A stretch of 64,000 nucleotides of DNA, taken from the NCBI GenBank assembly GCA_026391475.1, contig JAPLED010000087.1, positions 31,744 to 95,743 of the forward strand, in the 5' to 3' direction. The position numbers and the translations under genes were made by a program. The notes under the pieces were generated by a model, which ran no database searches, was not told the DNA's origin, and saw only the letters and a list, made by a program, of their open reading frames with translations. Of this stretch, positions 3,632-21,997 are shown in pieces. Source of the DNA: Bacteroidia bacterium. Lineage in GTDB: Bacteria; Bacteroidota; Bacteroidia; Bacteroidales; VadinHA17. Position 1 is the first letter of the stretch. Each line of letters opens with the position of its first letter.

Positions 3632-3655
3632 TTTCTAAAAACCGATAACAAAATA

Positions 3656-3671: not shown

Positions 3672-3700
3672 TAGGTCTCAAACACCCCTCAATTCGGTTG

Positions 3701-4809: not shown

Positions 4810-5526
4810 TTACATAAACTTCTCCCTCTTCTGAAGGTTGTATAAAGCTGCCAGAAGGAACACGATTGTTCCGGTAATCAGAACTATCCTGTTTTTAAGA
4901 GTAATGATTGCCCATGTTGTCTCATTTACATCACGTGGCAGGTTGAATGGGTTAAGGAACACGTTCCACTGGCTCTTACTCAATGGCGTACTAAGTATAA
5001 GGAATATCAGCCCGAATATTATCATGACGACAGCTGTTCCATTTCCATTTCTGATAACAGTTGAAAGCATAAAAGCCATTACACCAAGAAAAATAACAGG
5101 TAGCATCACCTGCAACGTCATATTTACAGTGCGGAATCTGACAATAAACACAGAAGACAACAGTGTGAAAGCTAGCATGATGATGAAAGCAATTATAAAT
5201 ATCAGCACTATTCTTACGAGCCAGACTTTGTACCTATAGTTAGGTATTCCAAATAATATTTCAATAGTTCTGGCATCCTGATCATTCTGAACGCCAAAGA
5301 CCGATGGATAAAAAACCAGAAGTATCCCTGAAAAGAGAAAAATTCCGTACATATCCTCCATCTTTGAAACGTCATTTGAGAACACATAAATTATTGAAAG
5401 TCCGACATAAAACAATATAGATCCGGTAAGAAACCAAATGAACTTATTTGCGAAGATAATTCGTAGATTATAAATGATCATCTTATAAATAATGATGATA
5501 TAATTATGTAAGTTTGTGCCTTTCAT
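4810..5526 (-). CDS. ABC-2-type integral membrane permease (about six TM helices), last gene of the efflux operon
   Basis: 238-aa hydrophobic ORF with about six predicted TM segments. It lies 24 nt downstream of the ORF carrying the fused ATPase domain. No sequence motif was recognised, so the call rests on topology and context. A start at M16 (5481) is possible. Confidence 0.55.
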   Translation of the reverse strand: MKGTNLHNYIIIIYKMIIYNLRIIFANKFIWFLTGSILFYVGLSIIYVFSNDVSKMEDMYGIFLFSGILLVFYPSVFGVQNDQDARTIEILFGIPNYRYKVWLVRIVLIFIIAFIIMLAFTLLSSVFIVRFRTVNMTLQVMLPVIFLGVMAFMLSTVIRNGNGTAVVMIIFGLIFLILSTPLSKSQWNVFLNPFNLPRDVNETTWAIITLKNRIVLITGTIVFLLAALYNLQKREKFM

Positions 5527-5550
5527 TTTATTAATATTAAACTGTTTATT

Positions 5551-8500
5551 TTAAGAAGCAGTTCTGACTTTCTTCCTGAGAATCCACAAATAAGCATCCT
5601 CAAGATTTGGAGTCACACTGACTGCGTCCTGATGTGGTTTATCTTCAGAAATACATCTTACTCTTACATTTTCTCCTTCGGACATGTGGTGTACCACTAA
5701 ATGACTTTCAATAAAACTGGCGAAGTCTTTTACAGGAATATTGAATTGCCAGACATGCTCTTCTGCCTCATTTGTCATGTCAATTGGTTTGCCAAGATAC
5801 ATCAGAATTCCTTTGTTCAGGACAGCGACCTGGTAGCAGGAGCTTGAGATATCCTCAATAATATGTGTGGAGAAGATGACCACTCTGTTGCGGCTAAGCT
5901 CCACAAGAAGGTTTCTGAACCTGATCCTTTCCCGGGGATCAAGACCGGCAGTAGGCTCATCAACAACGAGTATACGTGGCAGATGAAGAAGTATTTGAGC
6001 TATACCCATTCTTTGTTTCATTCCTCCTGAGTAAGAGCTTATTTTATCATGTCTGCGGTCCTCCATATGAACAGCATTCAGGCAGTATGTAACTCTTTCT
6101 TCTCTTATTTTAGCATCAGTGATGTTTTTAAGAATAGCCTGATAATGAAGATAATCATGAGCTGTCATATTTTCATAGCTTCCAAACTCCTGAGGAAGGT
6201 ATCCGATAAGTCCCTGAAGCTCTTCTCTCTTTTTTTGAGTGTCCATTCCATTTATCCATACCTTACCGTAGCTCTGTTCCAGGATGCCACAGATTATCCG
6301 CATAAGTGTCGTTTTACCTGCACCATTTGGCCCAAGAAGGCCAAACATACCGTTCCCGATATTCAGTGAGACACAACTTAAAGCTTTGAAAGGCTTTTTC
6401 TTTCTGCCTATCAATGGTATTGCTGCAACTATTTTATAGAAATTCTTACGGATATTTTTAAACCTGCCTTCGAGACGATAGATATCTATATTCTCTGAAC
6501 TCATTTTAATTCCTGTTCTGTATATAATAAGGCCGAAAAACCATAAGACTCCAAGTATAAGTACTATCGCAATGTTATGCCACCTTATCTGAAAGAGATA
6601 AATATTACCCAGTGGTATGATCCAGAATATCAGTGCATCAAGTATTCTTACAATCCCGGAATATATTTTCTTTTTTTCTGATGATGCAAAATTTGTCAGT
6701 AATTTTTTGAAAGGGATCCAGATGCCCAGAAGGGAAAACCATATACAGATACTGAATATAAAAATCCAGAAACCGCTTTTCAGATAAAAATATGTAAAAT
6801 AGATAACAAACCCGATCAATGGTATTTGCCAGGTCAGATGGTTCATATCTCTCCATGATGAAAAGTCCTTTTCAAGCCCAAGCCTTTCCCTTATTCTTAA
6901 GCCAGCTTTCCATTCCCGTGTAAGACGACTGCCTCTGTCATATATTTTGACAAGGCTCTGAACATAAATATTAATAGGTTCATCAGAAGAGATTACAGTC
7001 TCTCTTGCTTTTCTAAGTGTGTTGATAAAAAACCATGTGGCTGCCGGTACAATGATTAATGAGAGTATTGTTGTTATCAATTTCCAGAGGAATTGATCAA
7101 TATAGGTATATATCACAAGTATAAGTAAAGCTAATACGATGAATTGAATAACTTTTATTTTCAAGTTAAGTGAGTAGATCCATTGAAGTGAGTTTTCGAG
7201 GCCTGAGTAGAAAGTAGGAATAAAGATAAGTGTCAGCATTGTACTAAGAGTCAAACCTCCGATGACAGTAATTGCAAAAGCAGCACCAATGGTAGCAACA
7301 AATTCAGATTTTCCCATAGCCAGTGGAAAGAGGGCAATCACAGTTGTTGAGGCAGTGATCAGGATAGGTCTAACCCGCGCTATTCCTGCAGTCATTAAAG
7401 CGCGTGAACGTCTGTTGCCTCTCTTCCTTAAAATATTGGTATAATCAATAAGGAGAATTCCATTGTTTACCACCACACCGAGAAGTATTAGGAATCCGAT
7501 CAGAGTATTGGCATTTAGAAGAGAATTGTTTGTTAGAATAAGCGCAATAAGTGAACCTAATGCGGCAAGTGGTATGCTGAACATCAGGACCACCGGGGTG
7601 GAAAGTGATTCAAAAACTGAAGCAAGGATCATATAGATAAGGAGGAATGCCATCCCGATAAGGTAATAGAAATCTTTCAGCGGGTCCTCCTCATGAACGA
7701 CTTCGACTGCTATTCCTGAAGGTATATTGATATCTGAAACAATCGATTCTATTTCTGTTCTTGCACCTTCCAGCAGATCTTTGGAGCTAGTTATATCTGA
7801 ATTAAAACTATATGTAACTGTAATTTTTTTCTCACGGTTTTCCCTGTGTATGTTCCCCATACCAGATGAAAATACAACATTTGATAATTCCTGCATTTCC
7901 ATTAAATTGGAATTGCTACTTGTCACTTCGAGATGTTTAAGGTCATCGATTGTCTTGTTCGTATTTACCTTGATCTGACCTGATTCATCTGTATATTTCA
8001 GAGTGATATCATAGCTTTCGGTCCCCTGTAAAAAAGTTGCACCTGAGGAATATTCTCTCCCAAAAGTGGAAAGTGCTGAGGAAATATTATTCAGGGTGAA
8101 ATTATTACGTCCGATATAATCCATATCAAACTTTAAATGTACTTCAGGTGTATTATCCTGAACATTAACATTCACACTACTAATTGTTGACAGATCCTGA
8201 ATAGCTGCCTTAATATCATCTGAAAGGTTTTTCATCTGTTCGAAATTCTGTCCTTTTATGATAACACTTTCGCTTGTTGTTCCCATACCCAGAAGGTTCA
8301 TAAAGTTTGCCCCGGGATTTACCGCTCCTCCTCCTCCTCCTCCTGAGCCGGAATAACCCCCACCTGAAGAAATCTCATTCATGGTGATTTCTCCTGTCCT
8401 CATGTTTCTTACTTTTTCAAGAATGTCATTTTTAATTTCCGGAAGAGTCCTTTTGCTTGACTTATCCCATTTTTTAGCAAGATTTACAGTTAATGTTGCT

Positions 8501-10299
8501 TTTGCTTCCTCGATTCTGCTCACGATATCTTCTTTTTCCGGTACTCCACTAAGTCTTTGTTCAATTTGGGTAACGAATGCATCTGTTTTTTCAAGTGTCG
8601 ATCCGGAAGGCATTGTAACTGAAAGTCTGAAACTCGGAGTCTCAACTTCCTTTGTTGAACTGATACTTAAGGTCAGGCTGATAAGAAGTGCAGCGAAGAA
8701 CACAACGAGTGTGCCTATTATAGTACCTGCCGGGTTCCTCATACTGGCTTTGAGGGTAAGATAATAGGCCTGAATAAGCCGGTTATGTATCGAAAGCTTT
8801 TTAAAGATTCCTAAATCGGATCCCTTCGCTAATTTAAGAATAAAATGCGTTGCCATAGGGATAAAAAGAAGAGCAACGACCAATGAAATGACCAGGGTTG
8901 AGATTATAGAAACGCCAATATTCTTACCGATAATTTTGATCATGAAGTTGTCCGAGAAAATAAAGGGCAGGAAAACGGTTATAGTCGTAAGAGTTGCTGC
9001 AAAGATTGATCTCCATACCTCACTGGTTCCCTGCTTAACAGCAGTATCAATATCCTTTCCCTGACTTACAAGCCGGTAAATATTCTCAAGGACAACCACC
9101 GAATTGTCGACAAGCATACCAATGGCAAGAGCCATTCCAACAAGTGTAAGGCTGTTTATTGAGATATTATATGCATAGAAAAAGTTAAAGGCTGCATAAA
9201 CCGAGATAGGAATTGAAAGTGCAATTATAAAAACCAACCGGATATTACGTAAAAAGAACCACAATATAAGTACTGCAAGTATTCCTCCGATGACAGCCAG
9301 ATGAATTATCTCGTTTAAGTTGTTCTCCATGATTTCGGCATTATTGTTCTGGACAACTATTTCCACGCCTTCAGATTTCAGATTGTCGTTCAGCGTTTTA
9401 ACCACATTAAGGGTTTTGTGGGAAAGGTCGATCAGGTTAGCCTGATTATCATTTATAAGTGTAACTGTCACTGCATCGAGCCCATTGACCCGGCTATAGG
9501 AAGTTTGCTCTTTGACTCCAAAAATAATATCGGCAATGTCTTTCAGAGTCACAGACCCGTTTTGTTTTACAATAATATTTCCAATTTCGTTAACGTCAGT
9601 ATATTCAGATGTCACATTAACAAAAAGTTTATTGGTTCCTTCCTTCACCGATCCGACAAAGGTTTTATCCTTACCATTGTTGTTCAGAAGGTTTGTGACC
9701 TGTGCCATGGAAATCCCATATGCTTTGCAGGCTTTTTCATTAAGTCTGACCTCAATAGATTTTGCCTGACCACCGTACACCTGAACACCTGCTATACCAG
9801 TAATATTTTCAAGTTCAGGTGATATTTCCTTATCCGTTATGTTACGGATCCTGTCTATTCCTCCTTCACCTCTGATCTGTAATTCCATGAACTGGCTTGC
9901 AATCTGTGTGATATCAATTTTTACAACAGTAATTCTGAACTCAGCAGGCAACGTTGTTTTCACCAGGTTTATCTTTTCCTGCAGCTTCAGATTTGCATAT
10001 TTCATATTGGCATTCTGATTGTAATAAAGGATTATCGTCCCGGAACGGGAAGTAATGTTTGATTCAATCTTTTCAATGCCTTCAAGAGTACCAATAGCAC
10101 CTTCCAGGGGAATTATTGCCTGGTTTTCAATATAATTAGGATCTAACTCAAGAGGAGTAGAAACCTGAACAATGAGAGTCGGAAGTTGAGAATTAGGAAA
10201 AAGTTCAATCGGGAGTCTCTTATAGGAAATATAACCAAGCATTGTAAGCCCGATAAAGACCATACAGATCAGCACCTTTCTCTTTATAATGAAATTCAT
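5551..10299 (-). CDS. Fusion protein: RND (AcrB/HAE-type) efflux permease, about six extra TM helices, and a C-terminal ABC transporter ATP-binding domain
   Basis: Residues 1 to about 1040 are collinear with the neighbouring 1040-aa RND permease. They share the N-terminal TM, two large periplasmic loops, and motifs such as LVGMALAIGMLVDNSVVVLENI and VVNNGILLIDY. The C-terminal ~290 residues carry Walker A GPNGAGKTT, Q-loop LPQEF, signature SGGMKQR, Walker B ILVVDEPTAGLD and H-loop STHII. One uninterrupted 4749-nt frame. Confidence 0.85.
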   Translation of the reverse strand: MNFIIKRKVLICMVFIGLTMLGYISYKRLPIELFPNSQLPTLIVQVSTPLELDPNYIENQAIIPLEGAIGTLEGIEKIESNITSRSGTIILYYNQNANMKYANLKLQEKINLVKTTLPAEFRITVVKIDITQIASQFMELQIRGEGGIDRIRNITDKEISPELENITGIAGVQVYGGQAKSIEVRLNEKACKAYGISMAQVTNLLNNNGKDKTFVGSVKEGTNKLFVNVTSEYTDVNEIGNIIVKQNGSVTLKDIADIIFGVKEQTSYSRVNGLDAVTVTLINDNQANLIDLSHKTLNVVKTLNDNLKSEGVEIVVQNNNAEIMENNLNEIIHLAVIGGILAVLILWFFLRNIRLVFIIALSIPISVYAAFNFFYAYNISINSLTLVGMALAIGMLVDNSVVVLENIYRLVSQGKDIDTAVKQGTSEVWRSIFAATLTTITVFLPFIFSDNFMIKIIGKNIGVSIISTLVISLVVALLFIPMATHFILKLAKGSDLGIFKKLSIHNRLIQAYYLTLKASMRNPAGTIIGTLVVFFAALLISLTLSISSTKEVETPSFRLSVTMPSGSTLEKTDAFVTQIEQRLSGVPEKEDIVSRIEEAKATLTVNLAKKWDKSSKRTLPEIKNDILEKVRNMRTGEITMNEISSGGGYSGSGGGGGGAVNPGANFMNLLGMGTTSESVIIKGQNFEQMKNLSDDIKAAIQDLSTISSVNVNVQDNTPEVHLKFDMDYIGRNNFTLNNISSALSTFGREYSSGATFLQGTESYDITLKYTDESGQIKVNTNKTIDDLKHLEVTSSNSNLMEMQELSNVVFSSGMGNIHRENREKKITVTYSFNSDITSSKDLLEGARTEIESIVSDINIPSGIAVEVVHEEDPLKDFYYLIGMAFLLIYMILASVFESLSTPVVLMFSIPLAALGSLIALILTNNSLLNANTLIGFLILLGVVVNNGILLIDYTNILRKRGNRRSRALMTAGIARVRPILITASTTVIALFPLAMGKSEFVATIGAAFAITVIGGLTLSTMLTLIFIPTFYSGLENSLQWIYSLNLKIKVIQFIVLALLILVIYTYIDQFLWKLITTILSLIIVPAATWFFINTLRKARETVISSDEPINIYVQSLVKIYDRGSRLTREWKAGLRIRERLGLEKDFSSWRDMNHLTWQIPLIGFVIYFTYFYLKSGFWIFIFSICIWFSLLGIWIPFKKLLTNFASSEKKKIYSGIVRILDALIFWIIPLGNIYLFQIRWHNIAIVLILGVLWFFGLIIYRTGIKMSSENIDIYRLEGRFKNIRKNFYKIVAAIPLIGRKKKPFKALSCVSLNIGNGMFGLLGPNGAGKTTLMRIICGILEQSYGKVWINGMDTQKKREELQGLIGYLPQEFGSYENMTAHDYLHYQAILKNITDAKIREERVTYCLNAVHMEDRRHDKISSYSGGMKQRMGIAQILLHLPRILVVDEPTAGLDPRERIRFRNLLVELSRNRVVIFSTHIIEDISSSCYQVAVLNKGILMYLGKPIDMTNEAEEHVWQFNIPVKDFASFIESHLVVHHMSEGENVRVRCISEDKPHQDAVSVTPNLEDAYLWILRKKVRTAS

Positions 10300-10331
10300 T
10301 TTATTAATTGGTCTTAGTCATCATAAGTAAA

Positions 10332-13300
10332 CTATTCATTCACTGGCTTTTTCCTGGTGATTTTGTCACTGAAGGAATCAAAAACCCAATAAACACATGG
10401 TATCACTATCAAGGTGAGGATAGTTGACGTAACCAGTCCTCCAATCACCGCAAGCGCCATCGGAGATCTGAGTGATGCACTTTCGCCGATGCCGATTGTA
10501 AGTGGAATAAGCGCAAATATTGTTGTAAGACTTGTCATTAAAATAGGTCTGATTCTCTGTGATCCTGCAGTAATTATTGAGTCTTTTTTGTTTAATCCGG
10601 TCCGGCGTAATTGGTTTATACGATCAATAAGAATAATTGCATTACTCACAGCAATCCCTCCAAGCATAATGATGCCAATGTATGCCATCATATTGAGGGT
10701 TTTTCCCAACAGGAAAAATGTCAGAATGGTACCGACTGCAGCAAGAGGTATTGTTAATAAAATAACAAAAGGTTGAATTATTGATTCAAATTCAGCTGCC
10801 AGAACCATAAATACCAGGATAATTGACAGAATCAGTGCAAATGTCAGGTTAGACATTGATTCTTTTCTCATTAGCTCTTCACCTGTTATTTGAATCCTGT
10901 AGTTAGCTGGCAATGGAACTGATTTCAGCGATTCTCTAGCATCTTTTACGATCTTGTCAAAGGGTTTGGATTTATTAACCATAGCATATATATAGCTTGT
11001 CCGGCTCTGATCTCGCCGGGTAATTTCCCTGGGGGATATAACTGTTTTGACAGTAGCTAACGAACTCAATGGTACCTTTACCGATCCTGCTGTAATCAGG
11101 AGATCTTCAAGTTGATGAAGTGAAAGATCTCCGAGCTTAATGGTTATGTCCTTCATCTCACCATCCTTTTCCATTGTGCCTGCAGTAGCGCCAGAGAGAT
11201 AACTTTGTATCTGACTGATTACATTATTTACCGAAACATTATAATAACTAGTCTTAAACCTGTCAACAGCTACTTCAACTTCCGGAGTTCCCTGGTCAAG
11301 GGAAGTTGTAATATTATAAAGACCACTGTTATTCTGAAGCACTTCTTTTGATTCATTAATTATCTTTTCAATCTCGGTAAAGTCTTTCCCTTTTACCTCA
11401 ACAACAAATGGGGCTTCGCTGGTTCCCAGAGAAGCTTGCAGCGCTGTTTCTTCCTGGGAAAAGCTTACATCAAGGTCAGGAATCGTCTTAAGGTATTTCT
11501 CAACAGTTCTGATAGCTTCTTCTGTCAGATATGCATATTCATTTTTCAGAAATACTTTAATGTTTGCAAAATTCTCATTTTTGGAAGTTGCAGATTGGGT
11601 GGTTGTATTTATATCCCCACCTGCCTGACTGTAAATCATCCTGATTTTGTCACCAAGAAGTTCATTGATAGTTCCTTCAATTTTTTGGATTGTACTTTGA
11701 GTACGTTCAAGATTTGTCCCTTCCGGAAGTTTCAATCCTACAGTAAATTCAGATGAAGATGATTTTGGCATATACTCACTTCCAAGTTTTGGTATGAGAA
11801 GTACGGTCAACCCCATAAATACAATAGACAGAATGATCACAATCAATCTCTTTTCGATGATTTTTGAAAGAAACTTTGGATACCATCTGAATTGCATTGG
11901 GCTGCTAAGTTGAACATTTTGTCCTTTCTTCTCACGAAAAAGAGTACTTACCAGCATTGGAATGACGAGCATTGCAACAAATAAAGATGAGATCAGAGCA
12001 AAAGCTACTGTCCAGGCCTGGTCTTTGAACATTTCACCGGAAGCTCCTCTTAGATACACTATAGGAAGGAAGACAACTATTGTTGTGATTGTAGAAGCCG
12101 TAATGGCTCCTCCGACCTGCCCGGTACCAATAATTGCTGCATCGCGCAATGACATTCCTTCATCTCTGTTTCTGGTAATATTTTCAAGGACAACAATTGC
12201 ATCATCAACCAGCCTGCCGGCCCCGAGCGCCAGCCCTCCCAAAGTCATTATATTTAATGTCAGGTGATTGAAATACATTAGGTTGAATGTTGCTATTATG
12301 GAAATAGGTATGGCAACACTGACCACCATTGTGGTACCTATCCTTCGGAGGAAAACATATAAAACAATCATTGCAAGGAAAATTCCAATAAGCCCGGAAT
12401 TCTTTACCTCTTTAATGGCATTGTCAATATATTTTCCCTGATCCTTTACAACTATGAATTCATATCCAGGGAGAGCTTTTGTAAGAGTGCCCAGAGCATC
12501 GTTAAGGTTGTTAACGGCGTCAACGGTATTATATTTGGGTTCTTTGTAAATTGACAGGCCTATGCAGCGTTCACCATTAAGTGTGATAATATTTTCAGGA
12601 TCTTTATTTTTATATTTTATGGTTGCAACATCGCGAAGATAAATTGGAACTTTTTCTATTGAGGTAGCGGTCGTGCCCGAAGCTGCAGTCGTACCTGCCT
12701 GGGAGGACTGTTTGAATCCGACAACTATGTTCTCAAGATCTGTTAAATTTTCCAGGACACTTACACCTTTGACCACATATTTAAGACCCAGATCAACAAT
12801 AGAACCTCCTGATACATTTTTGTTATAATTTGTTATCTGTGCAGCAATAGCGTCAGCGCTCAATCCGAAAGATTCAAGTATATATTTATTGGTTTCAATT
12901 ACAACTTCGCTCTCTTCCTGACCAGTTAGTTTCACATCAGCTATGCCTTCAATTCTGACTAGTTCGTTTCGGATATAGTTTTCTGCAACTTTCCTTAATT
13001 CATCCATGTCAGTAATTTCCTTGTTCCTCAATCCCACAATCATAACGGGTGAAGCATTAGGATCGTATTGAGAAATATTAAACTCCTGGAGGTCCGAGTT
13101 CTGACTGAATGAGTTTAATGCCTTCTGCAAGTCGAGAAATGCCTCGTCCATATCTTTGTTCCAGCTATATTCGACTGTTATCAGTGCTGAACCGACCTGG
13201 GAGACTGAGGATACCTGGATGACATCACTCTGTCGCATGGAAAGCGATTCTATCTGATCAACATAATTTTTCTCGATTTCTTCCGGTGGTTTTTCCCCGG

Positions 13301-13454
13301 CAGTGAATTCAATATATATCTTCGGATTGTTCAGGTTTGGGAAGAGATCAGTTCCCAGTTTTCCTAGAGATATAACTCCAAGAAGAATAATGCCGAGTAC
13401 CAACATTAGAACTGTAACCGGGTATTTTACAGCAAATTGGGCAATCCTGTTCAT
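10332..13454 (-). CDS. Efflux RND transporter permease subunit (AcrB/CzcA superfamily)
   Basis: 1040 aa with a 12-TM architecture and two large periplasmic loops. Conserved TM4-type motif GGLALGAGRLVDDAIVVLENI. It follows the MFP gene directly. Confidence 0.92.
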   Translation of the reverse strand: MNRIAQFAVKYPVTVLMLVLGIILLGVISLGKLGTDLFPNLNNPKIYIEFTAGEKPPEEIEKNYVDQIESLSMRQSDVIQVSSVSQVGSALITVEYSWNKDMDEAFLDLQKALNSFSQNSDLQEFNISQYDPNASPVMIVGLRNKEITDMDELRKVAENYIRNELVRIEGIADVKLTGQEESEVVIETNKYILESFGLSADAIAAQITNYNKNVSGGSIVDLGLKYVVKGVSVLENLTDLENIVVGFKQSSQAGTTAASGTTATSIEKVPIYLRDVATIKYKNKDPENIITLNGERCIGLSIYKEPKYNTVDAVNNLNDALGTLTKALPGYEFIVVKDQGKYIDNAIKEVKNSGLIGIFLAMIVLYVFLRRIGTTMVVSVAIPISIIATFNLMYFNHLTLNIMTLGGLALGAGRLVDDAIVVLENITRNRDEGMSLRDAAIIGTGQVGGAITASTITTIVVFLPIVYLRGASGEMFKDQAWTVAFALISSLFVAMLVIPMLVSTLFREKKGQNVQLSSPMQFRWYPKFLSKIIEKRLIVIILSIVFMGLTVLLIPKLGSEYMPKSSSSEFTVGLKLPEGTNLERTQSTIQKIEGTINELLGDKIRMIYSQAGGDINTTTQSATSKNENFANIKVFLKNEYAYLTEEAIRTVEKYLKTIPDLDVSFSQEETALQASLGTSEAPFVVEVKGKDFTEIEKIINESKEVLQNNSGLYNITTSLDQGTPEVEVAVDRFKTSYYNVSVNNVISQIQSYLSGATAGTMEKDGEMKDITIKLGDLSLHQLEDLLITAGSVKVPLSSLATVKTVISPREITRRDQSRTSYIYAMVNKSKPFDKIVKDARESLKSVPLPANYRIQITGEELMRKESMSNLTFALILSIILVFMVLAAEFESIIQPFVILLTIPLAAVGTILTFFLLGKTLNMMAYIGIIMLGGIAVSNAIILIDRINQLRRTGLNKKDSIITAGSQRIRPILMTSLTTIFALIPLTIGIGESASLRSPMALAVIGGLVTSTILTLIVIPCVYWVFDSFSDKITRKKPVNE

Positions 13455-13459
13455 GATTT

Positions 13460-14515: not shown

Positions 14516-14528
14516 ATATGATTTATTT

Positions 14529-16022
14529 TTAATATTTTAAGGTCTTAATCGGAATGACCGGTTGTTTCTTTTCAAAGTCGTAAAGTGCCTGTATTTTAAG
14601 ATTCAGGAGTTCAAGCTTATAAGATATTAAAGAATTTGTGTAAGAAAGCTTGTTTTGCGAGAGCTGGTTCTGATAAATACTCAGATCCATACCTGTCAGG
14701 TCTCCGTTTTTATACTTTTCAAGATTTAAGTCGTAAGTTAGTTGTGCATTATTGACCGACTGACGTGCGATTTCTATCTGGTTTTGGAGATTATTAAGAC
14801 TTCTGTAACTCTGTCTTATACTTAAAATTATATCGTTCTGTTCTACCCCGAGATCAATTTTGTTTGACTCAATTGATGCTTCAGTTGACTTTATTCTTGA
14901 TTTTTTTTCTCCCCAATCCCAGAGTGGGATTTGAAAAGACAATGCGACATTTTCATTGTTTTTTGGATCTGTATAAATATCTTTAAGGTTTTTATTATTC
15001 CCGTTAATTCCAAAAGAAAGGCCAAGGTTTCCCTTGAATTCATTAAGCGCCTTAGTCTGAATAAGATCATCATATGATGTTTCAATAGCTATCTGTCTTT
15101 GCCTCAATTCCATCCTGTTTGCGAGCCCCTGATCAATAGCAAATGCTATATCGATCTTTACTGTTGTATCAACTGCTATGTTTGGTATTACAAGAATATC
15201 GTCATATAGGTTTATACCAACCATGTTCTTAAAGGCATCCTTGGAATTTTCAAAAGCCACCTGCTTGTTTTCATAATCCGACTTGGTTGTCGCAAGGTTC
15301 AACTCAGCCTGAAATATTTCTGACTGAGCTGAAATTCCTGCATTAACTTTATTCTTCGAGATTTCATAGCTTTTCTGCATATTCTGATAAGCCTGGTTTG
15401 AAATATCCAGGCTTTGTTGCTGCTGATAAACAGTGTAAAATGCCTGGGTAACACTCTTTTCCATAGACAGGAGCTGAATGGCATAGTTAATCTGAGCATT
15501 CTCAAGTGACAGTTTAAGTTCTTTAATGGTGAGCTTGGTCCTGTTATAGGTGAACAGAGGCTGATTAAGGTTAATAGAAAGATCATTATTAAATTTTATT
15601 CCTTCTTGAGTTGGGAATTGTTCATTTAAAATGGTATTGGTATAACTAAAATTGTCAGTCAGAGAAATAGTTGCATCTGTAGGTAGAATAGGCTGTTTAA
15701 TTGTAAATGAACCTGAGCTCTGTAAACTCTTTGTAGTGTTAAAACCAGAATTAGTATAATACGCCCTGTTTTGAGAATAATTTAAAGGATTTACCAATAA
15801 AGAAAAATTTGATTTTAATGCAGCATTCTGAGCATTAAGATTTTCCTGGCTCCTTATAAGGTTAAGCCTTGTTTTTAATATAGTCGGACTATTTGATTCA
15901 GCTATAGTGAGAGCTTGTTCCATTGTAAGTCCTTTTTGTGCTGATACATTGTTAAAAATAAGGTTCACCAAGAGGAAGACTGACGGATAAATCCATTTAA
16001 ATATTATGAATTTCTTTTTCAT
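14529..16022 (-). CDS. TolC-family outer membrane efflux protein
   Basis: 497 aa with a signal peptide. It has a two-fold internal repeat of long helical segments rich in N/Q/L/S, as in OEP/TolC proteins. Operon position is next to the MFP. Confidence 0.85.
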   Translation of the reverse strand: MKKKFIIFKWIYPSVFLLVNLIFNNVSAQKGLTMEQALTIAESNSPTILKTRLNLIRSQENLNAQNAALKSNFSLLVNPLNYSQNRAYYTNSGFNTTKSLQSSGSFTIKQPILPTDATISLTDNFSYTNTILNEQFPTQEGIKFNNDLSINLNQPLFTYNRTKLTIKELKLSLENAQINYAIQLLSMEKSVTQAFYTVYQQQQSLDISNQAYQNMQKSYEISKNKVNAGISAQSEIFQAELNLATTKSDYENKQVAFENSKDAFKNMVGINLYDDILVIPNIAVDTTVKIDIAFAIDQGLANRMELRQRQIAIETSYDDLIQTKALNEFKGNLGLSFGINGNNKNLKDIYTDPKNNENVALSFQIPLWDWGEKKSRIKSTEASIESNKIDLGVEQNDIILSIRQSYRSLNNLQNQIEIARQSVNNAQLTYDLNLEKYKNGDLTGMDLSIYQNQLSQNKLSYTNSLISYKLELLNLKIQALYDFEKKQPVIPIKTLKY

Positions 16023-16068
16023 TGTAAAATGTATTATATCTAACTTTTAACTTTCTACTTTTTACTTT

Positions 16069-19000
16069 TCACTTCTGTCTCACCCATTTTATTGCGTCTC
16101 CAATCACAGCCCTTCCTGTTGAAAGATTTGAAAGAATAACTTTCGCTGTGTCGGCCGCAAGGTAATATGTACCCAGTTTGTTCCAGCCACTCTCGGCATT
16201 TATATAATCAAGAGATATATCTTCAATCCCGCCGTCATGAGAAATGCGGAAATGGAATTCTTTGTAAGGTTCAGAAAGCTGTCCTCTTCCACCTGTTCCC
16301 TGGCCTCCGGCCCTACCCGGTCCAGGTGCTCCTCCCGTTCCTCCGCCTCCTCCTGTTCTGCCACCTCCGGTTCTGGCCCCACCACCACCTCCGGTTCTGG
16401 CAGCTCCACCGCCCATTACCATCATCCTGTCGGTAGTTTTACCGACATAACAGAAAATATCATAATAACCTGGTATGTTTATAACAGTAGCCCATGTTAC
16501 TGTTTTATCCCCGATGCCACTTTTGGTGTAGACTGCTGAGCGAATATATTTTCCAAAATATAATGATTGGACAGCAGGTTGCCAGTATGCGGGAATCCTC
16601 ATAAGACTTATTTGTTGATAAGTACTTCCGTTTTTGTTTTGAATTCCAAGAAGTTTTTTCAATCTGTTCACAGTATTTTGTTTGCTGATTTTGAAACCTG
16701 GATCCTCATTATCAACTATTATTTCAGTTGAATCAGAAGAAGAAGGATCATATGAAATAATTTCTTCACCTGAGAATTCGCTGATAATACTTTTTGATTT
16801 AATTATTTTATCAATTGGTAATGTGATCTCACCGGGAATGTTTTTTGCAAAGAGAGTATTTATCATCATTGTTCTTGGCTGGGCATCGAGGACAATACCA
16901 ACTCTTTTTGTCTCATCAGGTCCTAAGTAAACAATTTTCGAAATATCGGCAGCTTCCATACCACGCCCCTGGGAAGATATCTGCATCCTTCCGCCACCCC
17001 CTGCAAAACCGCCACCACCTCCGAAGCCGCCACCACCTCCTTCACCACGAGCGCCACCTCCGCTTCCACGTCCTCCTCCTGCACCACCGGTACGAAATGA
17101 TACATTAAATAACCCACCTGCAGCTTCCGGATTGGATGCAATAAAAGTAACCTGATATCTTGATCTGTCGCCGATTACAATTTCGGTTGCCTCCAAATGT
17201 GCAAACAGGAATCCGGGTTGTTCCTTACCGTTGAACCAATCATACAGATAAGGATAAAATTCGAAACCGAACTTATTTTTAATATCATTATTGAAATTTT
17301 TAATGTCGACTCTTTTAAACCGATGATCATCAATATATTTGACAAACCAATCCTTAAATTCATCAATCCCTGCTTTTGACCTGATCAGGTTAAAAAAATT
17401 ATCACCCTTGATGGTCAAAACAGTGTTCAAAGTATCGCCACCCGGATTTTTTGCAAGCATGTCTTTAAAACTCTGGTTTTTCAGGATGAGATTGGCAATG
17501 TCATTTTCAGTAAGATTGCCAGCCATTGCCTGCAAACCAGCTCTGCCGGGAGAATTAACTTTTTGAAGATGAGCTTCAAAAACAGCATTAATAACCGGAT
17601 ATTCTGAAGAGTAAAAATTATTCTTGAAAAAGTAAAAGCTTGGACCCAAAAGATACCTTGTCGGTTCATTTACAACAACCCCGTTCACAAACCTGAAATT
17701 CTCACCACTGATAAAAGTGCTCCTCATGAAATTATTGAAAATCCTGACATGTAGCTCTTTGTCTGTAATAACCTGTCCATTGCGTGTCATCCTTTTCTTC
17801 TGCTGTTGGAATTGCTTATAGAAACCGGCCTGGTTCAGCGTAGAAAGTCTTTCGGGAAGTAGAACCATTGATGGTTGCACTTCTGCCCGGGTTTGAGTGT
17901 TTTCCTTAGGGTAAGAATAAAATTGCACCGGTACCTCAATCAGACTAAGAGTTTCGAAAGGATATTTTGTTGAAAAGTTAGTTTCAAGATCTCTCATGAG
18001 ACCCGAAATAAGTAAAGGTATAGTGTCTTTTATCGCTTCGAGGTCTTTTATATAATAATCGTTCCCGGGGAAATGATAGGAAATATATTCGACGGAATCA
18101 ACCTTAATTTTGTTGGTCAGATAATTACCTATTGCAAGTGTCAGACCTGTCAGCGGAGATTTCGGTTTATATATATAGTATCCATTTTCTTTGCTCATTT
18201 TGCCCTGGGAAATAGCTACCAGATTATTCTCTGCTTTTACTTTAAGAGAATAATTAGTAAAATCAATCTTTATCTGAGCTGGATTGGATGGGTAGTAATT
18301 GAGGCCGGCAACAGGATACCAGTGAGTCTCAGGAGTAAGCAACACATAGTCCCTGGTAAGGAAGGCCTGCCGCTTATTCACATTAACCATTGCAATTCTA
18401 TATGGATTCTCATTGATATTATCACTATAATTTGGATAACAAAATGATTCATTGATACTTCCTGAATACACAAACTCAATGTTATCACTCTTTCCGGGAG
18501 TAAGGATTTTTTCCGGGTTTATTTCGATTATATGATTTATTCTTTTGAATTTCAGATCTTTTCCACCGGAAGATATTTTTGTTACTGACAATGAAGGATT
18601 AAGGGAAAAGTAATATTGACTAATTGGTTCATTATTATCATTTAAAATTGTCAGAGCTGCGGTTGCCTCAAATGACTTTCCTTTATGAATAAATTCTATA
18701 GATGCATCAGTTACGGTAGCAAATTTTTTATTTTCAAACTCTTTGTTTGTTTTTATTACCAGTTTTTTATCAATAACCCCTTTTCTGTAAGTGGAGTAGG
18801 TATTTAAAGTACAGATTACCGATCCTCCCAGAAAAACGAACAAGAATATTATGGTCAGGATTCTATGAACTTTAGATTGTGGTAATCGTTTAAATAACAA
18901 AATTGTTGCCATGATCAGGGAAAGTCCTGAAAAAAGATAAATAAGTCTTTGATTGATTATAACACTTAAATTATCAAACCCGATTATGCCTGATTTGAAA

Positions 19001-19629
19001 ACGGGAAGACCGAAAGCCAAATAGTCGAAAATCGATCCGGCTCTGAAGTATAGGTAGAAAATATCAAGGGCAGCATAACCGAGAAGAATAAGGAACGTTA
19101 TTGCCTGGTTTTTTATTAATGACATCAGGGTGAAAGCCAGTCCCAGGCTGAAAATCAATGTCGGTATAGTTATGATGAAAAGATAATAGAAGTATGACAT
19201 TATATTTACTGACATACTCTTTGAAATGATATTAATTACCAGACATATTGCAAGTATCAATAAGTTCAGGCTCAGGAACAGCCTGAGAATTCCCCATGAT
19301 TTTCCAATAATATATTCAAAATTAGACATCGATCTGGTATAAAGTACTTCATTGGTATCCAGCTTCTTGTCACGTTTAAGAAAATCTGCAGCCAGGAAAA
19401 TAACCACAATTGCCTGGGCAATATTAAGCAGGTAAAGATTAATAAGCGGGAGAGAGGAAGAGATAGATATTACTTCCCACCCCTCATTACCGACAGGAGA
19501 AAACATACCGATGTTCATTAACGTGAAAATAAACACTACACCAATTGAGAAAAGACGGAAAAACCAGCTTCGCCTGAGAGTCTTTGCCTCATACCGGGCA
19601 ACTGTTCTGATATTTAACAAAGATGCCAT
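16069..19629 (-). CDS. ABC-2 permease (about 7 TM) fused to a large M1-aminopeptidase-like periplasmic region without HExxH/GxMEN motifs, containing two Gly/Arg-rich inserts and a golvesin-C-terminal-like tail
   Basis: 1186 aa. The N-terminal ~280 aa hold about seven TM helices. The remainder resembles the 'ABC transporter permease/M1 family aminopeptidase' architecture as I recall it from Flavobacteriia. No HExxH or GxMEN motif occurs anywhere in the translation. The C-terminus (...WNKLGTYYLAADTAKVILSNLSTGRAVIGDAIKWV) resembles golvesin-C-like domains. Domain calls come from memory and visual inspection, not from an HMM. Confidence 0.6.
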   Translation of the reverse strand: MASLLNIRTVARYEAKTLRRSWFFRLFSIGVVFIFTLMNIGMFSPVGNEGWEVISISSSLPLINLYLLNIAQAIVVIFLAADFLKRDKKLDTNEVLYTRSMSNFEYIIGKSWGILRLFLSLNLLILAICLVINIISKSMSVNIMSYFYYLFIITIPTLIFSLGLAFTLMSLIKNQAITFLILLGYAALDIFYLYFRAGSIFDYLAFGLPVFKSGIIGFDNLSVIINQRLIYLFSGLSLIMATILLFKRLPQSKVHRILTIIFLFVFLGGSVICTLNTYSTYRKGVIDKKLVIKTNKEFENKKFATVTDASIEFIHKGKSFEATAALTILNDNNEPISQYYFSLNPSLSVTKISSGGKDLKFKRINHIIEINPEKILTPGKSDNIEFVYSGSINESFCYPNYSDNINENPYRIAMVNVNKRQAFLTRDYVLLTPETHWYPVAGLNYYPSNPAQIKIDFTNYSLKVKAENNLVAISQGKMSKENGYYIYKPKSPLTGLTLAIGNYLTNKIKVDSVEYISYHFPGNDYYIKDLEAIKDTIPLLISGLMRDLETNFSTKYPFETLSLIEVPVQFYSYPKENTQTRAEVQPSMVLLPERLSTLNQAGFYKQFQQQKKRMTRNGQVITDKELHVRIFNNFMRSTFISGENFRFVNGVVVNEPTRYLLGPSFYFFKNNFYSSEYPVINAVFEAHLQKVNSPGRAGLQAMAGNLTENDIANLILKNQSFKDMLAKNPGGDTLNTVLTIKGDNFFNLIRSKAGIDEFKDWFVKYIDDHRFKRVDIKNFNNDIKNKFGFEFYPYLYDWFNGKEQPGFLFAHLEATEIVIGDRSRYQVTFIASNPEAAGGLFNVSFRTGGAGGGRGSGGGARGEGGGGGFGGGGGFAGGGGRMQISSQGRGMEAADISKIVYLGPDETKRVGIVLDAQPRTMMINTLFAKNIPGEITLPIDKIIKSKSIISEFSGEEIISYDPSSSDSTEIIVDNEDPGFKISKQNTVNRLKKLLGIQNKNGSTYQQISLMRIPAYWQPAVQSLYFGKYIRSAVYTKSGIGDKTVTWATVINIPGYYDIFCYVGKTTDRMMVMGGGAARTGGGGGARTGGGRTGGGGGTGGAPGPGRAGGQGTGGRGQLSEPYKEFHFRISHDGGIEDISLDYINAESGWNKLGTYYLAADTAKVILSNLSTGRAVIGDAIKWVRQK

Positions 19630-19644
19630 TAGCGTTTTTTATCG

Positions 19645-20538
19645 TTAGTCAATTAAAGTTGTATGTAATTTATGCTCCATGTAATATACATAGGCATGCT
19701 CAATGTCAGGATCAATGCTGATTGCATTATAATCAGGGACATCATCCGACACAACCTGAACTTCCCAGCCTGTCTCATTGGGTATTGTAGAAATAACATT
19801 GTAAATTTCTTTTACCTTTTCATATTCATATGGGGTCAGATTAAGTTTGAATACATGGCCTTCAGCATGTTTAACCAGGTTCTCGGGAGAACCATAGTAA
19901 ACTAATTCTCCCCTGTCAAGCAGGGCCATTCCCTGGCAGGTAGAAGAAATATCCCCAACAATATGAGTCGACAGAATAATAATTACATCATGCTGGCTTA
20001 GCTGGGAAAGTACATTTCTGAATTTAATCCTCTCGTCAGGATCCAGTCCTGTAGTGGGTTCATCGACAATTATAATCTTTGGATTACCAATGAGAGCCTG
20101 TGCAATACCCAGCCGGCGCTTCATGCCACCCGATAACTTGTTGGCCCGCCTGTCGCGCGCTTCAAGAAGCCCGACCTGATCAAGTAATCTGTCAACCTCT
20201 GCCATTCTTTCCTTTCTGTTTTTCAATCCGGCAAGAGACCCTGCATAATCCAGGAACTCCCAGGTCTTAAGGGCAGTAAAAAATCTGAAATCCTGGGGAA
20301 GATACCCAAGAATACTTCTTAGTTCTTTTCTGTGTTTTTGAATATCTTTGCCATTTACCATTACCAATCCTGATGTAGGTTTCATCAGGGTTACAAGTAT
20401 GCGCATAAGACTTGATTTGCCTGCTCCGTTTGGACCCAGCAGACCAAACATACCGGTACCGAATTCAAGATTGATGTTCTTCAGGGCATGATTGCCATTT
20501 GGATATACTTGATTAAGATTCTGAATTTCAATTTTCAT
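19645..20538 (-). CDS. ABC transporter ATP-binding protein (ABC-2/DrrA-like), first gene of the operon
   Basis: Walker A GPNGAGKSS, Q-loop LPQDF, signature SGGMKRR, Walker B IIIVDEPTTGLD and H-loop STHIV. It lies 15 nt upstream of the permease fusion gene. Confidence 0.93.
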   Translation of the reverse strand: MKIEIQNLNQVYPNGNHALKNINLEFGTGMFGLLGPNGAGKSSLMRILVTLMKPTSGLVMVNGKDIQKHRKELRSILGYLPQDFRFFTALKTWEFLDYAGSLAGLKNRKERMAEVDRLLDQVGLLEARDRRANKLSGGMKRRLGIAQALIGNPKIIIVDEPTTGLDPDERIKFRNVLSQLSQHDVIIILSTHIVGDISSTCQGMALLDRGELVYYGSPENLVKHAEGHVFKLNLTPYEYEKVKEIYNVISTIPNETGWEVQVVSDDVPDYNAISIDPDIEHAYVYYMEHKLHTTLID

Positions 20539-21990: not shown

Positions 21991-21997
21991 CTTATAA

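Follow-up and report, generated by a model that had tools for sequence, protein, structure and literature searches.

The window analysed here comprises 64,000 nucleotides of contig JAPLED010000087.1 (assembly GCA_026391475.1) from a Bacteroidia bacterium. It harbours seven consecutive minus-strand ORFs, encoding in order ATPase-1 (g1), permease-1 (g2), a TolC-like outer-membrane protein (OMP; g3), a periplasmic adaptor (MFP; g4), RND-1 (g5), an RND-2–ATPase-2 fusion (g6) and permease-2 (g7) (Table 1). The gaps separating them, from g1 to g7, are 15, 46, 13, 5, 32 and 24 nucleotides in the ORF listing; the number of ORFs, their strand, order and spacing match exactly those given in a preliminary description of this DNA. 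The unit is bounded by neighbours on either side: a convergent radical-SAM gene (3756–4808, plus strand) adjoins g7, and a divergent cluster of HD-domain, lpxD, lpxC-fabZ and lpxA genes lies beyond g1. The presence of nusA, rimP and lpx genes around the operon bears out the housekeeping surroundings previously noted. A conserved block is found 60–95 nucleotides upstream of the g1 ATG across 72 relatives; the intergenic region has no match in Rfam.

Table 1. Features of the seven-gene locus (window coordinates)
Feature	Position	Strand	Basis or remark
Divergent intergenic region upstream of g1	20539..20736	.	Presumed operon promoter/operator region
g1, ABC ATPase-1, 297 aa	19645..20538	-	Pfam ABC_tran, E 2.7e-32
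g2, ABC-2-type permease, 1186 aa	16069..19629	-	Hydropathy, homologues
g2 membrane domain, aa 1-275	18805..19629	-	Hydropathy, model helices, weak ABC2_membrane matches in orthologues
g2 M1-metallopeptidase-like pseudo-enzyme domain, ~aa 300-846	17092..18732	-	Foldseek, weak Pfam
g2 Gly/Arg-rich low-complexity tract 1, aa 848-881	16987..17088	-	Sequence; pLDDT <50
g2 C-terminal beta-rich region ending in Golvesin_C (CBM6/35/36-like)	16072..16971	-	Pfam
g2 Gly-rich tract 2, aa 1073-1116	16282-16413	-	Splits Golvesin_C domain
g3, TolC-like outer-membrane factor (OMF), 497 aa, signal peptide	14529..16022	-	Pfam OEP, E 4e-42, two stretches; TIGR01844, E 1.6e-27
g4, periplasmic adaptor (MFP), 351 aa	13460..14515	-	TIGR01730 RND_mfp, 176.4 bits vs 94.9 cut-off; HlyD_D23
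g5, RND-1, 1040 aa, 12 TM	10332..13454	-	ACR_tran, E 1.7e-211, full length
g6, fusion of RND-2, six-TM linker and ABC ATPase-2, 1582 aa	5551..10299	-	One uninterrupted ORF
g6 RND-2 domain, aa 1-1035, 12 TM	7195..10299	-	ACR_tran, E 4.3e-160
g6 extra helical hairpin TM13-TM14, aa 1046-1092	7024..7164	-	Hydropathy, AF2 helices, conserved in alignment
g6 displaced NBD first beta-strand and A-loop, INIYVQSLVKIYDRG, aa 1109-1123	6931..6975	-	Columns L, V, K, Y, R invariant
g6 178-aa insertion inside NBD	6397..6930	-	Basic amphipathic helix, then four TM helices (TM15-18)
g6 rest of ABC ATPase-2, aa 1302-1582	5554..6396	-	ABC_tran, E 3.6e-28
g7, permease-2, 238 aa, six TM	4810..5526	-	Divergent ABC-2 family permease; small system-tied family

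ATPase-1 displays Walker A (aa 35–42), signature (135–142), Walker B with the catalytic Glu (155–162) and H-loop (190–194) motifs, followed by a C-terminal extension, and none of the 77 orthologues lacks any of the five ATPase motifs. Its best NCBIfam matches, DrrA and GldA, each fall below the equivalog cut-off. The adaptor is probably a lipoprotein (Cys18), as its signal peptide and AISC lipobox suggest.

The RND–ABC fusion and its conservation

The g6 product carries ACR_tran (aa 2–1032) and ABC_tran (1312–1451) domains in one frame. Its NBD, 41% identical to g1, contains Walker A (1323–1330), signature (1423–1430), Walker B plus Glu (1443–1450) and H-loop (1477–1481) motifs and a C-terminal domain; the catalytic motifs are invariant in the alignment, and each of the 52 orthologues of scorable length has them. 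TM_1403, ABCA4/7/1 and NosF are its fold matches. Judged from the alignments, this NBD is split, with β1 and the A-loop lying upstream of a conserved four-TM insertion: removing the insertion lets the g1 HMM align from position 2 with 280.8 bits, compared with 273.5 bits from position 17 for the unspliced sequence and 273.9 bits for a shuffled control. The linker contains invariant residues and a conserved cytoplasmic amphipathic helix. Alignments reveal no conserved charged residues in its six helices, which therefore resemble a tether rather than a pathway. The AlphaFold model of g6 is poor (pLDDT 67.8), and helix packing and stoichiometry are of low confidence.

Complete g6 orthologues of 1562–1616 aa were recovered from 51 separate species, spanning Bacteroidales to Latescibacterota, with identities in the RND portion from 77% down to 30%. 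No unfused version of RND-2 and its NBD was found among approximately 60 species, the seemingly split genes being frameshifts in long-read assemblies. The fusion is thus genuine and ancient. That it might be an assembly or sequencing error, or a stop codon lost in one genome, is refuted by the comparative data and has a vanishingly small probability: frameshift-fragmented genes do occur in several related long-read assemblies, but 51 independent species-level assemblies share the uninterrupted architecture and length, including those of the isolates Prolixibacter bellariivorans, Draconibacterium mangrovi, Parabacteroides massiliensis, Marivirga sericea, Labilibacter sediminis and Maribellus maritimus. 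In Marivirga tractuosa (L050) the fusion ORF is intact and RND1 is in two pieces.

The wider gene order is equally persistent. The fusion and the order g2, OMP, MFP, RND1, RND2–NBD, permease-2 recur in approximately 60 (50–60) species-representative genomes of Bacteroidales, Marinilabiliales, Cytophagales, Calditrichota and Latescibacterota, and are kept in each genome locus with sufficient flank, except that the OMP gene is absent from the Latescibacterota loci. Median junction lengths are 12–32 nucleotides, with 4-nucleotide overlaps in several cases, and the recurrence of this order with such short junctions far exceeds chance. The g1 gene immediately precedes g2 wherever this could be checked: in approximately 80 metagenome loci and, in the same arrangement, at distant loci (L166 and L167 of Cytophagales, L067, L075 of Ancylomarina euxinus, and L078). 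At locus L065 g1–g2 are present and no OMP, MFP or RND genes adjoin them, so that the first ABC module can be genomically separate. Genes beyond the seven are not conserved between lineages. The layout, earlier described as non-standard, is therefore real and strongly linked, and the neighbourhoods conserved across genomes speak against a fortuitous adjacency of ABC and RND genes.

Two divergent ABC-2 permeases and a periplasmic arm

Hydropathy indicates that g2 begins with seven membrane helices (N-in/C-out), beyond which about 900 aa lie in the periplasm. Its homologues, 1108–1215 aa long, are mostly annotated as hypothetical and in some cases as NosY-like permeases (JGI); weak ABC2_membrane_2/3/4 matches come from distant orthologues. 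The g7 protein itself has no Pfam match; among 36 diverse members of its family, 15 match ABC2_membrane_3 (best E 2.3e-10) and 14 ABC2_membrane_2. The family is restricted to 190 clusters (50% identity, E ≤ 1e-3) among 1.84 billion representatives, and g7 lies directly 3′ of the fusion gene in 55 of 55 loci examined. On the strength of these profile matches, both permeases are divergent ABC-2 proteins and not of the MacB type; profile searches found neither an FtsX domain nor a MacB periplasmic domain in the ABC parts of the operon.

For the g2 pseudo-enzyme domain, each of the top 50 Foldseek hits is an M1 peptidase or has the M1 fold (lowest E 1e-10), although the query model was poor (pLDDT 49.0) and leaves the ectodomain fold at low confidence; weak matches to Pfam Peptidase_M1 and to PDB 3cia point the same way. 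The HExxH zinc motif is missing from 126 of 127 homologues and the GxMEN exopeptidase motif from all 127. The M1-like fold thus offers no support for the periplasmically processed substrate proposed in the preliminary description, and the giant domain is more likely to serve in binding or as a scaffold. At the C-terminus, the Golvesin_C match reaches 42.7 bits, above the 31.6 cut-off (aa 1124–1183, profile positions 70–131), and a weak match to profile positions 20–67 precedes tract 2. The golvesin domain has been equated with CBM6-CBM35-CBM36_like_2 (PMC9166713).

Relation to known pumps and possible modes of action

Tandem RND paralogue genes sharing one adaptor and one OMF recall MdtABC-TolC and MuxABC-OpmB. 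The analogy with MdtBC drawn earlier is reasonable, the best solved-structure match of RND-1 being MdtB (9lyq). In contrast to those pumps, however, RND-1 and RND-2 share only 26% identity, and neither reaches the equivalog cut-off for MdtB or MdtC; both are without a Lys in TM10 and, in most cases, without the second Asp of TM4, and RND-2 carries a fused ABC ATPase. The parallel with MacAB-TolC holds insofar as genes for an ABC ATPase, an adaptor and a TolC-like channel occur together; it fails for the permeases, which have six or seven helices of ABC-2 type instead of the four-TM MacB/FtsX architecture with its periplasmic domain, and an RND pair is added. By analogy, ABC-2 exporters with an adaptor (YbhGFSR, YhiI-RbbA-YhhJ) or a periplasmic partner (NosDFY) are closer precedents than MacB. 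In Escherichia coli YbhGFSR and YhiI-RbbA-YhhJ, ABC-2-class NBDs and two unlike ABC-2 permeases are encoded beside an MFP gene, as they are here, and provide a precedent for two NBDs and two different permeases acting as one transporter; these systems, however, lack an RND and a giant periplasmic domain, and the RbbA equivalog cut-off is not reached (142.8 vs 1050 bits). In NosDFY, too, an ABC-2 membrane domain is coupled with a large periplasmic module; NosF ranks among the closest structural matches to NBD-2, and some g2 homologues carry a NosY-like annotation; but the g2 module is fused to the permease, is M1-like and CBM-like rather than a NosD β-helix, and the operon has no copper or N2O-reductase context. 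The domain order of g2 and its upstream ATPase gene also resemble an annotation class of ABC-2 permease/M1-aminopeptidase fusions, in which a membrane domain precedes an M1-like extracytoplasmic domain and an ATPase gene lies upstream; unlike these, g2 has neither HExxH nor GxMEN, adds Gly-rich tethers and Golvesin_C, and resides in an RND operon. Literature searches yielded no earlier description of the RND–ABC fusion architecture or of the operon.

The favoured reading, to which an even chance may be assigned, takes the products of all seven genes as a single composite exporter that is conserved and spans the envelope, its ABC-2 modules being permanently attached to a heteromeric RND/MFP/OMF pump. 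Gene order suggests physical association beyond the covalent fusion in g6. The hybrid envelope-spanning export machine envisaged previously is supported in part, its processed substrate excepted.

The proton relay of the RND pair bears on a different possibility. In g5, TM4 reads LVDDAIVV and TM10 IAVSNAII, with Ser at the position of AcrB K940; the g6 counterparts are LVDNSVVV and VVVNNGIL, the latter without Lys. Across homologues, all 52 RND1 and all 57 RND2 sequences have Asn or Ser in place of K940; at the position of D408, the second TM4 Asp, 50 of the 52 RND1 sequences have Asn, and every one of the 57 RND2 sequences has Asn, Ser or Thr. The equivalents of D407, R971 and T978 are invariant in both. 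As far as the alignments indicate, both paralogues are without the canonical AcrB triad, whereas unfused RND paralogues in related genomes (L032, L056) retain DD and Lys; the altered relay argues for specialisation to this system. The six extra helices, the split NBD and the degenerate relay of both RNDs do not feature in the preliminary description. It is conceivable, if doubtful, that the fused NBD, dimerised with a second NBD, acts mechanically through the six-helix linker to power or gate the conformational cycle of the RND, replacing or supplementing the proton-motive force (PMF). The missing AcrB-type relay, its retention in the unfused paralogues, an NBD that is catalytically intact by its motifs and fused in every case, and the conserved linker with its amphipathic helix are all consistent with such an ATP-driven or dual-energised RND. 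However, SecDF, a member of the RND superfamily, achieves proton coupling with just an Asp/Arg pair, and with D407 and R971 equivalents invariant PMF coupling may persist; g7, a separate ABC-2 permease, would be an ordinary transporter partner for the NBD, and we know of no mechanism that would pass NBD motion to the RND transmembrane bundle.

It is rather improbable that the operon encodes separate, co-regulated transporters, namely a PMF-driven two-RND pump beside one or two ABC-2 exporters for the same or related substrates, with the fusion ensuring only stoichiometric co-expression or co-localisation. All components belong to families able to act alone, L065 carries g1–g2 without the remainder, and inner-membrane and RND pumps can cooperate sequentially with no need of contact. 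Yet a neutral fusion is unlikely to have lasted across several phyla with a specialised, invariant six-TM linker and a split NBD, members of the tiny g7 family directly follow the fusion gene at each locus examined, and an unfused version is absent from the species surveyed.

Comparably improbable is a mechanotransducing role for the ABC modules, like that of NosDFY, FtsEX or LolCDE, in place of substrate translocation. ATP hydrolysis by g1–g2 would then move the periplasmic arm; the arm would capture a ligand containing glycan or peptide, located in the periplasm or associated with the cell wall, and feed it to the RND, or would instead anchor the complex in the envelope. The arm of about 900 aa, with its non-catalytic M1 fold and carbohydrate-binding-like Golvesin_C on Gly-rich tethers, suits this role, and a NosF/NosY-class assignment is suggested by the fold of the NBD and by some JGI annotations; nevertheless, the ectodomain model is of low confidence, the ligand class is guessed from domain families, and the fusion of the NBD to RND-2 is left unexplained.

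SecDF acting with SecA/SecYEG, in which a PMF device of the RND superfamily with an Asp/Arg relay cooperates with an ATPase in one export pathway, offers a conceptual precedent; SecDF is not homologous in role, is unfused, handles protein substrates and has no adaptor or OMF. In the composite exporter, g3, g4 and the two RNDs would form a tripartite conduit from the periplasm to the outside, the RNDs probably assembling as a heterotrimer of the MdtB2C kind. The six extra helices of g6 tether RND-2 covalently to an intact ABC-2-class ATPase, which together with the free ATPase g1 and the permeases g7 and g2 would constitute the ATP-driven inner-membrane part, arranged either as two homodimeric modules or as one heterodimeric NBD1/NBD2–g2/g7 transporter. 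As we infer the coupling, this part would spend ATP on extracting the substrate from the cytoplasm or the inner leaflet, or on flipping it, and may also move the M1-like/CBM-like arm of g2; the substrate would then pass straight to the neighbouring RND porter domains and out through the adaptor/OMF duct. If such a heterotrimer contained one or two fused subunits, the three-fold symmetry of the RND could be squared with the two-fold symmetry of the ABC dimer.

The seven-gene unit and its distribution

The unit consists of seven minus-strand genes, g1 to g7, separated by gaps of 15, 46, 13, 5, 32 and 24 nt, and the ORF list reproduced exactly the order and spacing reported in the preliminary description. 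On the g7 side it is bounded by a convergent radical-SAM/4Fe-4S gene, with one base separating the stop codons, and on the g1 side by a divergent cluster of lpx genes. Together with nusA and rimP further downstream in the window, the lpx genes bear out the housekeeping surroundings ascribed to the operon. The current source labels for these proteins are 'efflux RND transporter permease subunit', 'ABC ATPase' or 'ABC-type multidrug transport system ATPase', and 'hypothetical protein'. The true start of the radical-SAM gene probably lies downstream of the listed TTG, since a gene beginning there overlaps a region near 3654-3673 with a terminator-like hairpin on the minus strand. A tRNA-Arg (CCG) gene is the sole RNA gene detected within the window.

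Features of the seven-gene unit and of its surroundings
Feature	Coordinates	Strand	Description	Basis
radical-SAM/4Fe-4S gene	3756-4808	+	convergent neighbour of g7	
g7	4810-5526	-	238 aa, six hydrophobic helices, no Pfam or NCBIfam match	ORF list, hydropathy
g6	5551-10299	-	1582 aa, ACR_tran (aa 2-1032) and ABC_tran (aa 1312-1451) in a single frame	ORF list, Pfam and NCBIfam
Gly/Arg-rich tract of RND-2	8323-8370		predicted second periplasmic loop	
g5	10332-13454	-	full-length ACR_tran	ORF list, Pfam and NCBIfam
TM4 of RND-1	12189-12212		Asp-Asp	
g4	13460-14515	-	RND-type adaptor with lipobox	ORF list, Pfam and NCBIfam
g3	14529-16022	-	OEP/TolC-like	ORF list, Pfam and NCBIfam
g2	16069-19629	-	1186-aa membrane protein, only clear domain C-terminal Golvesin_C	ORF list, Pfam and NCBIfam
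second Gly/Arg-rich tract of g2	16282-16413		aa 1073-1116	
first Gly/Arg-rich tract of g2	16987-17088		aa 848-881	
g1	19645-20538	-	ABC ATPase	ORF list, Pfam and NCBIfam
upstream region	20570-20635		surrounds the inverted repeat	
inverted repeat	20597-20621	-	AATGAAT-N11-ATTCATT	
lpx cluster	20737-25342	+	HD-domain gene, lpxD, lpxC-fabZ, lpxA	
tRNA-Arg (CCG)	61696-61769	+		

The distribution of the unit was surveyed with an alignment of the segment between the end of RND TM12 and Walker A, scanned against one genome per bacterial species. At least 62 loci matched it over its full length. Those among the matches listed belong to uncultured Bacteroidales, Rikenellaceae, Prolixibacteraceae (Prolixibacter bellariivorans, Draconibacterium mangrovi, Maribellus, Mariniphaga and Sunxiuqinia), Marinilabiliaceae, Labilibacter, Proteiniphilum, Odoribacter, Parabacteroides massiliensis, Bacteroides sp. 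224, Tannerella and Cytophagales (Marivirga sericea, M. tractuosa and Cyclobacteriaceae), as well as to one Calditrichaceae and three Latescibacterota genomes. Gene order was scored by mapping the seven window proteins onto six-frame ORFs of the loci. Among the matches listed, every sufficiently flanked locus displays the order g2 C-terminus, OMP, MFP, RND-1, a single ORF for RND-2, linker and NBD, and g7; the Latescibacterota loci lack the OMP gene and keep the remainder. Two of these, L063 and L064 (1-12350), carry a deep-branching form of the gene cluster in which RND-2 is ∼33% identical and no OMF gene lies between g2 and the adaptor. Junctions are short, with median gaps of 32, 24.5, 28, 14.5 and 12 nt and some overlaps of 4 nt among the matches listed; the value of 14.5 nt refers to the RND-1–RND-2 junction in 56 species among these matches.

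As g1 falls beyond the 10-kb flank of the scanned loci, its position was checked separately. In ∼80 metagenome loci seeded on g2 (58–87% identity), g1 is directly upstream of g2 wherever upstream sequence is present, and the same arrangement is found in L166, L167 (a Cytophagales relative), L067, L075 (Ancylomarina euxinus) and L078. An exception is provided by L065 (positions 9965-19864), located on a complete Bacteroidales MAG chromosome, where g1 and g2 are followed by genes for a sigma-54 response regulator, LemA and a TPM-domain protein, and no OMP-MFP-RND set is present at the locus. The preliminary description had allowed for a merely fortuitous adjacency of ABC and RND genes in this genome. 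The recurrence of the same order across species, the short junctions and the location of g1 before g2 across lineages contradict this possibility and show that the seven-gene unit is conserved.

Beyond these seven genes, the neighbourhood differs between lineages. No eighth gene is conserved after g7, the commonest candidate family occurring in at most 6 of 55 loci among the matches listed. The divergent lpx cluster adjoins g1 in ∼80 close relatives; as a functional clue this adjacency was rejected, as it is confined to the close clade and missing in L166, L167 and L065, and it probably reflects synteny and not a functional link.

Upstream of g1, a perfect 7-bp inverted repeat is located ∼60–85 nt from the start codon. 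The repeat lies inside a conserved block common to 72 related loci; the consensus of the relatives differs from the window repeat. It could represent an operator, or else promoter elements belonging to one or the other of the divergent operons. Rfam detected no riboswitch or leader upstream of g1. A promoter/terminator scan was uninformative, with 80 matches against 58 expected and 18 against 11.5 expected, the internal matches being all weak, and the sigma-70 consensus is ill-suited to Bacteroidota.

The RND-ABC fusion protein

The fusion of RND-2 to the second ATPase, already recognized in the preliminary description, is corroborated by a single frame in the window and by at least 51 complete orthologous ORFs of 1562–1616 aa. 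These lengths were taken from genome loci because protein searches with a short query yielded nothing but short or partial entries: the C-terminal 549 aa of g6 retrieved many proteins combining PF00873 and PF00005 at 54–85% identity, most of them truncated by contig ends. The few apparent splits of the fusion are frameshift fragments in long-read assemblies. In three long-read MAGs (L001, L002 and L058) the large genes are broken into many frameshift pieces, so that the fusion seems split in gene calls. An artefact is excluded, and the RND and ABC parts are permanently and covalently joined. A search for plasmid-borne homologues of the linker found none.

Hydropathy, alignment and AlphaFold secondary structure (pLDDT only 67.8) agree on the anatomy of g6. 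RND TM12 is followed by a conserved amphipathic segment (GLENxLxW), a helical hairpin formed by TM13 and TM14 (aa 1046–1092), a basic cytoplasmic stretch, the motif INIYVQSLVKIYDRG (aa 1109–1123; L, V, K, Y and R invariant), a basic amphipathic helix, four further TM helices connected by periplasmic loops of 3–6 residues and, finally, KPFKALSCVSLNIGNGMFGLLGPNGAGK and the remaining NBD. Compared with the g1 N-terminus, MKIEIQNLNQVYPNGNHALKNINLEFGTGMFGLLGPNGAGK, the motif at aa 1109–1123 is identified by sequence as the strand and loop that open the NBD, namely its first beta-strand and its A-loop. A g1-orthologue HMM was run against g6 with the 178-aa insertion spliced out: it aligned from position 2 with 280.8 bits, compared with 273.5 bits from position 17 when the strand was absent and 273.9 bits when the strand was shuffled. 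Taken together, the splice test and the anatomy indicate that g6 has 18 TM helices and that a membrane insertion of four helices splits its NBD, a topology consistent with the positive-inside rule.

The conserved linker residues are Trp, Pro and cytoplasmic basic residues, and the alignment shows no charged intramembrane residue among the conserved positions. This absence suggests that the linker may be a tether or coupling element and not a transport pathway. As the AlphaFold2 models were too poor for helix packing and interfaces, only their secondary structure and a consistent fold-match family were used.

Transporter classes and the periplasmic region of g2

Both NBDs in the window preserve Walker A, Q-loop, signature, Walker B-Glu and H-loop, and every one of the 77 g1 and 52 scorable g6 orthologues keeps these motifs, so that both ATPases are intact. 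The g1 protein and the NBD of g6 (NBD-2) share 41% identity over 277 residues, a common C-terminal domain included. The closest NCBIfam models for both are DrrA and GldA, both below cut-off; against the GldA equivalog TIGR03522 (cut-off 402.6 bits) g1 scored 185.6 and the g6 NBD 169.4 bits. These sub-cut-off scores and the lack of any Pfam GldG-like domain in the operon led to rejection of a GldAFG gliding-motility transporter. The closest folds to NBD-2 are TM_1403, ABCA4/7/1 and NosF.

The g7 family is very small, with 190 clusters at 50% identity (E ≤ 1e-3) among 1.84 billion representatives. The g7 protein itself matches ABC2_membrane Pfam families only at E 0.25; of 36 diverse relatives, 15 match ABC2_membrane_3 (best E 2.3e-10) and 14 ABC2_membrane_2. 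Distant orthologues of the g2 membrane domain show weak ABC-2 matches (E 6.6e-5 to 9e-3), none of which reaches the gathering score. None of the seven proteins matches FtsX/MacB_PCD, and relaxing the threshold to E ≤ 10 brought up no match for g2, g7 or the linker. These searches place the permeases g2 and g7 probably in the ABC-2 class and not with MacB/FtsX; a MacB-type tripartite pump was rejected, there being no FtsX-type four-TM permease with a periplasmic domain between TM1 and TM2. No significant similarity emerged from hhalign comparisons of g7, the g2 membrane domain and the six-TM linker, and the sole match of the g7 profile to PDB sequences was a marginal one to CcmB (E 1.6).

The g2 chain after the seventh helix is predicted to be periplasmic. 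In Foldseek, each of its 50 best matches is an M1 metallopeptidase or another protein of M1 fold, TAF2 of TFIID for example, with E down to 1e-10 but low TM-scores and a poor model (pLDDT 49.0). Pfam Peptidase_M1 (PF01433) stays under its threshold in g2 as well as in orthologues; these matches, a weak one to PDB 3cia and precomputed PF01433 matches on Cytophagales fragments agree with the M1 fold. The GxMEN exopeptidase motif is absent from all 127 g2 homologues, and HExxH is missing in 126 of the 127, the lone HEFKH occupying a non-homologous position. An active M1 zinc aminopeptidase, defined by HExxH(x18)E and GxMEN, was thus rejected, and the domain is predicted to be a pseudo-peptidase serving as a non-catalytic arm. 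The same missing motifs argue against the periplasmically processed substrate envisaged in the preliminary description. At the C-terminus, Golvesin_C (PF25275) scores 42.7 bits against a cut-off of 31.6, and 65.4 bits in a Latescibacterota g2 orthologue; this domain has been equated with a CBM6/35/36-like carbohydrate-binding fold in a Bacteroides lectin paper (PMC9166713). Two Gly/Arg-rich tracts of GGGRG type, the second of which interrupts Golvesin_C, are putative spacers. Similar tracts are seen in Latescibacterota g2, and a further one lies in RND-2.

The RND pair and the proposed machine

Both RND proteins match ACR_tran across profile positions ∼1–1020 (E 1.7e-211 for g5 and 4.3e-160 for g6) and have 12 TM helices each by hydropathy; this fits the architecture of AcrB/HAE-1-like members of the RND superfamily, with its two large periplasmic loops. 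Against the multidrug RND model NF033617 (cut-off 1250 bits) they reach 558 and 444 bits, respectively, both below it. The two are 26% identical to each other, and their closest solved relatives are MdtB for RND-1 and ZneA for RND-2. The analogy with MdtBC drawn in the preliminary description stands in so far as two RND paralogues are encoded next to each other along with a single adaptor, in which the set partly resembles MdtABC; orthology does not, since g5 scores 361 against 1584 bits for NF007798 and 358 against 1774 bits for NF007905, the MdtB/MdtC equivalogs, and g6 lower still.

Proton-relay positions, numbered after AcrB, were placed through alignment to MdtB and scored in 52 RND-1 and 57 RND-2 sequences. 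The canonical HAE-1 relay (D407 and D408 in TM4, K940 in TM10, R971 and T978 in TM11) is not retained. D407, R971 and T978 are invariant in both subunits. D408 is replaced by Asn in 50 of the 52 RND-1 sequences and by Asn, Ser or Thr in all 57 RND-2 sequences; K940 is Asn or Ser in RND-1 and Asn in RND-2, never Lys. Pooled, the K940 equivalent is Asn/Ser in 109/109 and the D408 equivalent Asn/Ser/Thr in 107/109. The window RND-1 is one of the two with Asp at 408, its TM4 retaining Asp-Asp where 50 of 52 orthologues carry Asp-Asn. Unfused RND paralogues in two of the genomes retain VDD and TKN; together with the relay scores, this indicates that the relay is reduced to Asp/Arg in both subunits. 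SecDF manages with an Asp/Arg pair, so that the RND pair may, but need not, have lost proton coupling.

How the parts work together can be read in several, partly overlapping ways. The favoured reading, that the seven proteins form one composite machine, is evenly balanced between acceptance and doubt. The OMF, the adaptor and an RND-1/RND-2 heterotrimer would constitute the exit conduit; the ABC part would extract or flip the substrate, might move the g2 arm and would load the adjacent RND, the fusion enforcing proximity and stoichiometry. Such a machine would partly resemble in its working the adaptor-dependent ABC-2 exporters and NosDFY. If each trimer held two fused subunits, an NBD-2 homodimer could work with g7, and g1 and g2 would make up a second homodimeric module; alternatively, one fused subunit would pair its NBD with g1, and g2 and g7 would be unlike permease halves, an arrangement with precedents in YbhFSR and RbbA-YhhJ.

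A more radical proposal, which we consider unlikely, is a tripartite efflux class in which the fused ATPase energises or gates the RND scaffold. The RND pair would have abandoned the AcrB-type Asp-Asp-Lys relay, and its functional rotation would be driven by an ABC dimer acting via the six-helix linker, with or without a contribution from the residual Asp/Arg site; a heterotrimer of 2:1 or 1:2 composition would resolve the mismatch between trimer and dimer. An ATP-driven RND seems improbable, the reduced relay and intact ATPases notwithstanding, and would be categorically new if ATP does drive the RND. Transporters that are independent and merely co-regulated are a doubtful reading alongside a permanent covalent fusion, and ABC modules acting as mechanotransducers, for which the non-catalytic g2 arm would be a candidate moving part, are given a comparably low probability.

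Full-text searches for RND-ABC or permease/M1 fusions, subscription-only papers outside, and a comprehensive 2021 review of tripartite systems did not reveal any account of an RND-ABC fusion. Efflux pumps are sorted by energy source, tripartite ones being RND-, ABC- or MFS-driven, and a conserved RND-ABC fusion crosses that division. The module offers a tractable system for the coupling of cytoplasm-to-periplasm transport to expulsion across the outer membrane and for the fit of a three-fold RND to a two-fold ABC engine. As it is present in cultured Bacteroidota (Parabacteroides, a Bacteroides sp., Prolixibacter, Draconibacterium, Marivirga and Ancylomarina) and in many environmental and gut/rumen MAGs, it may bear on intrinsic resistance or envelope biogenesis.
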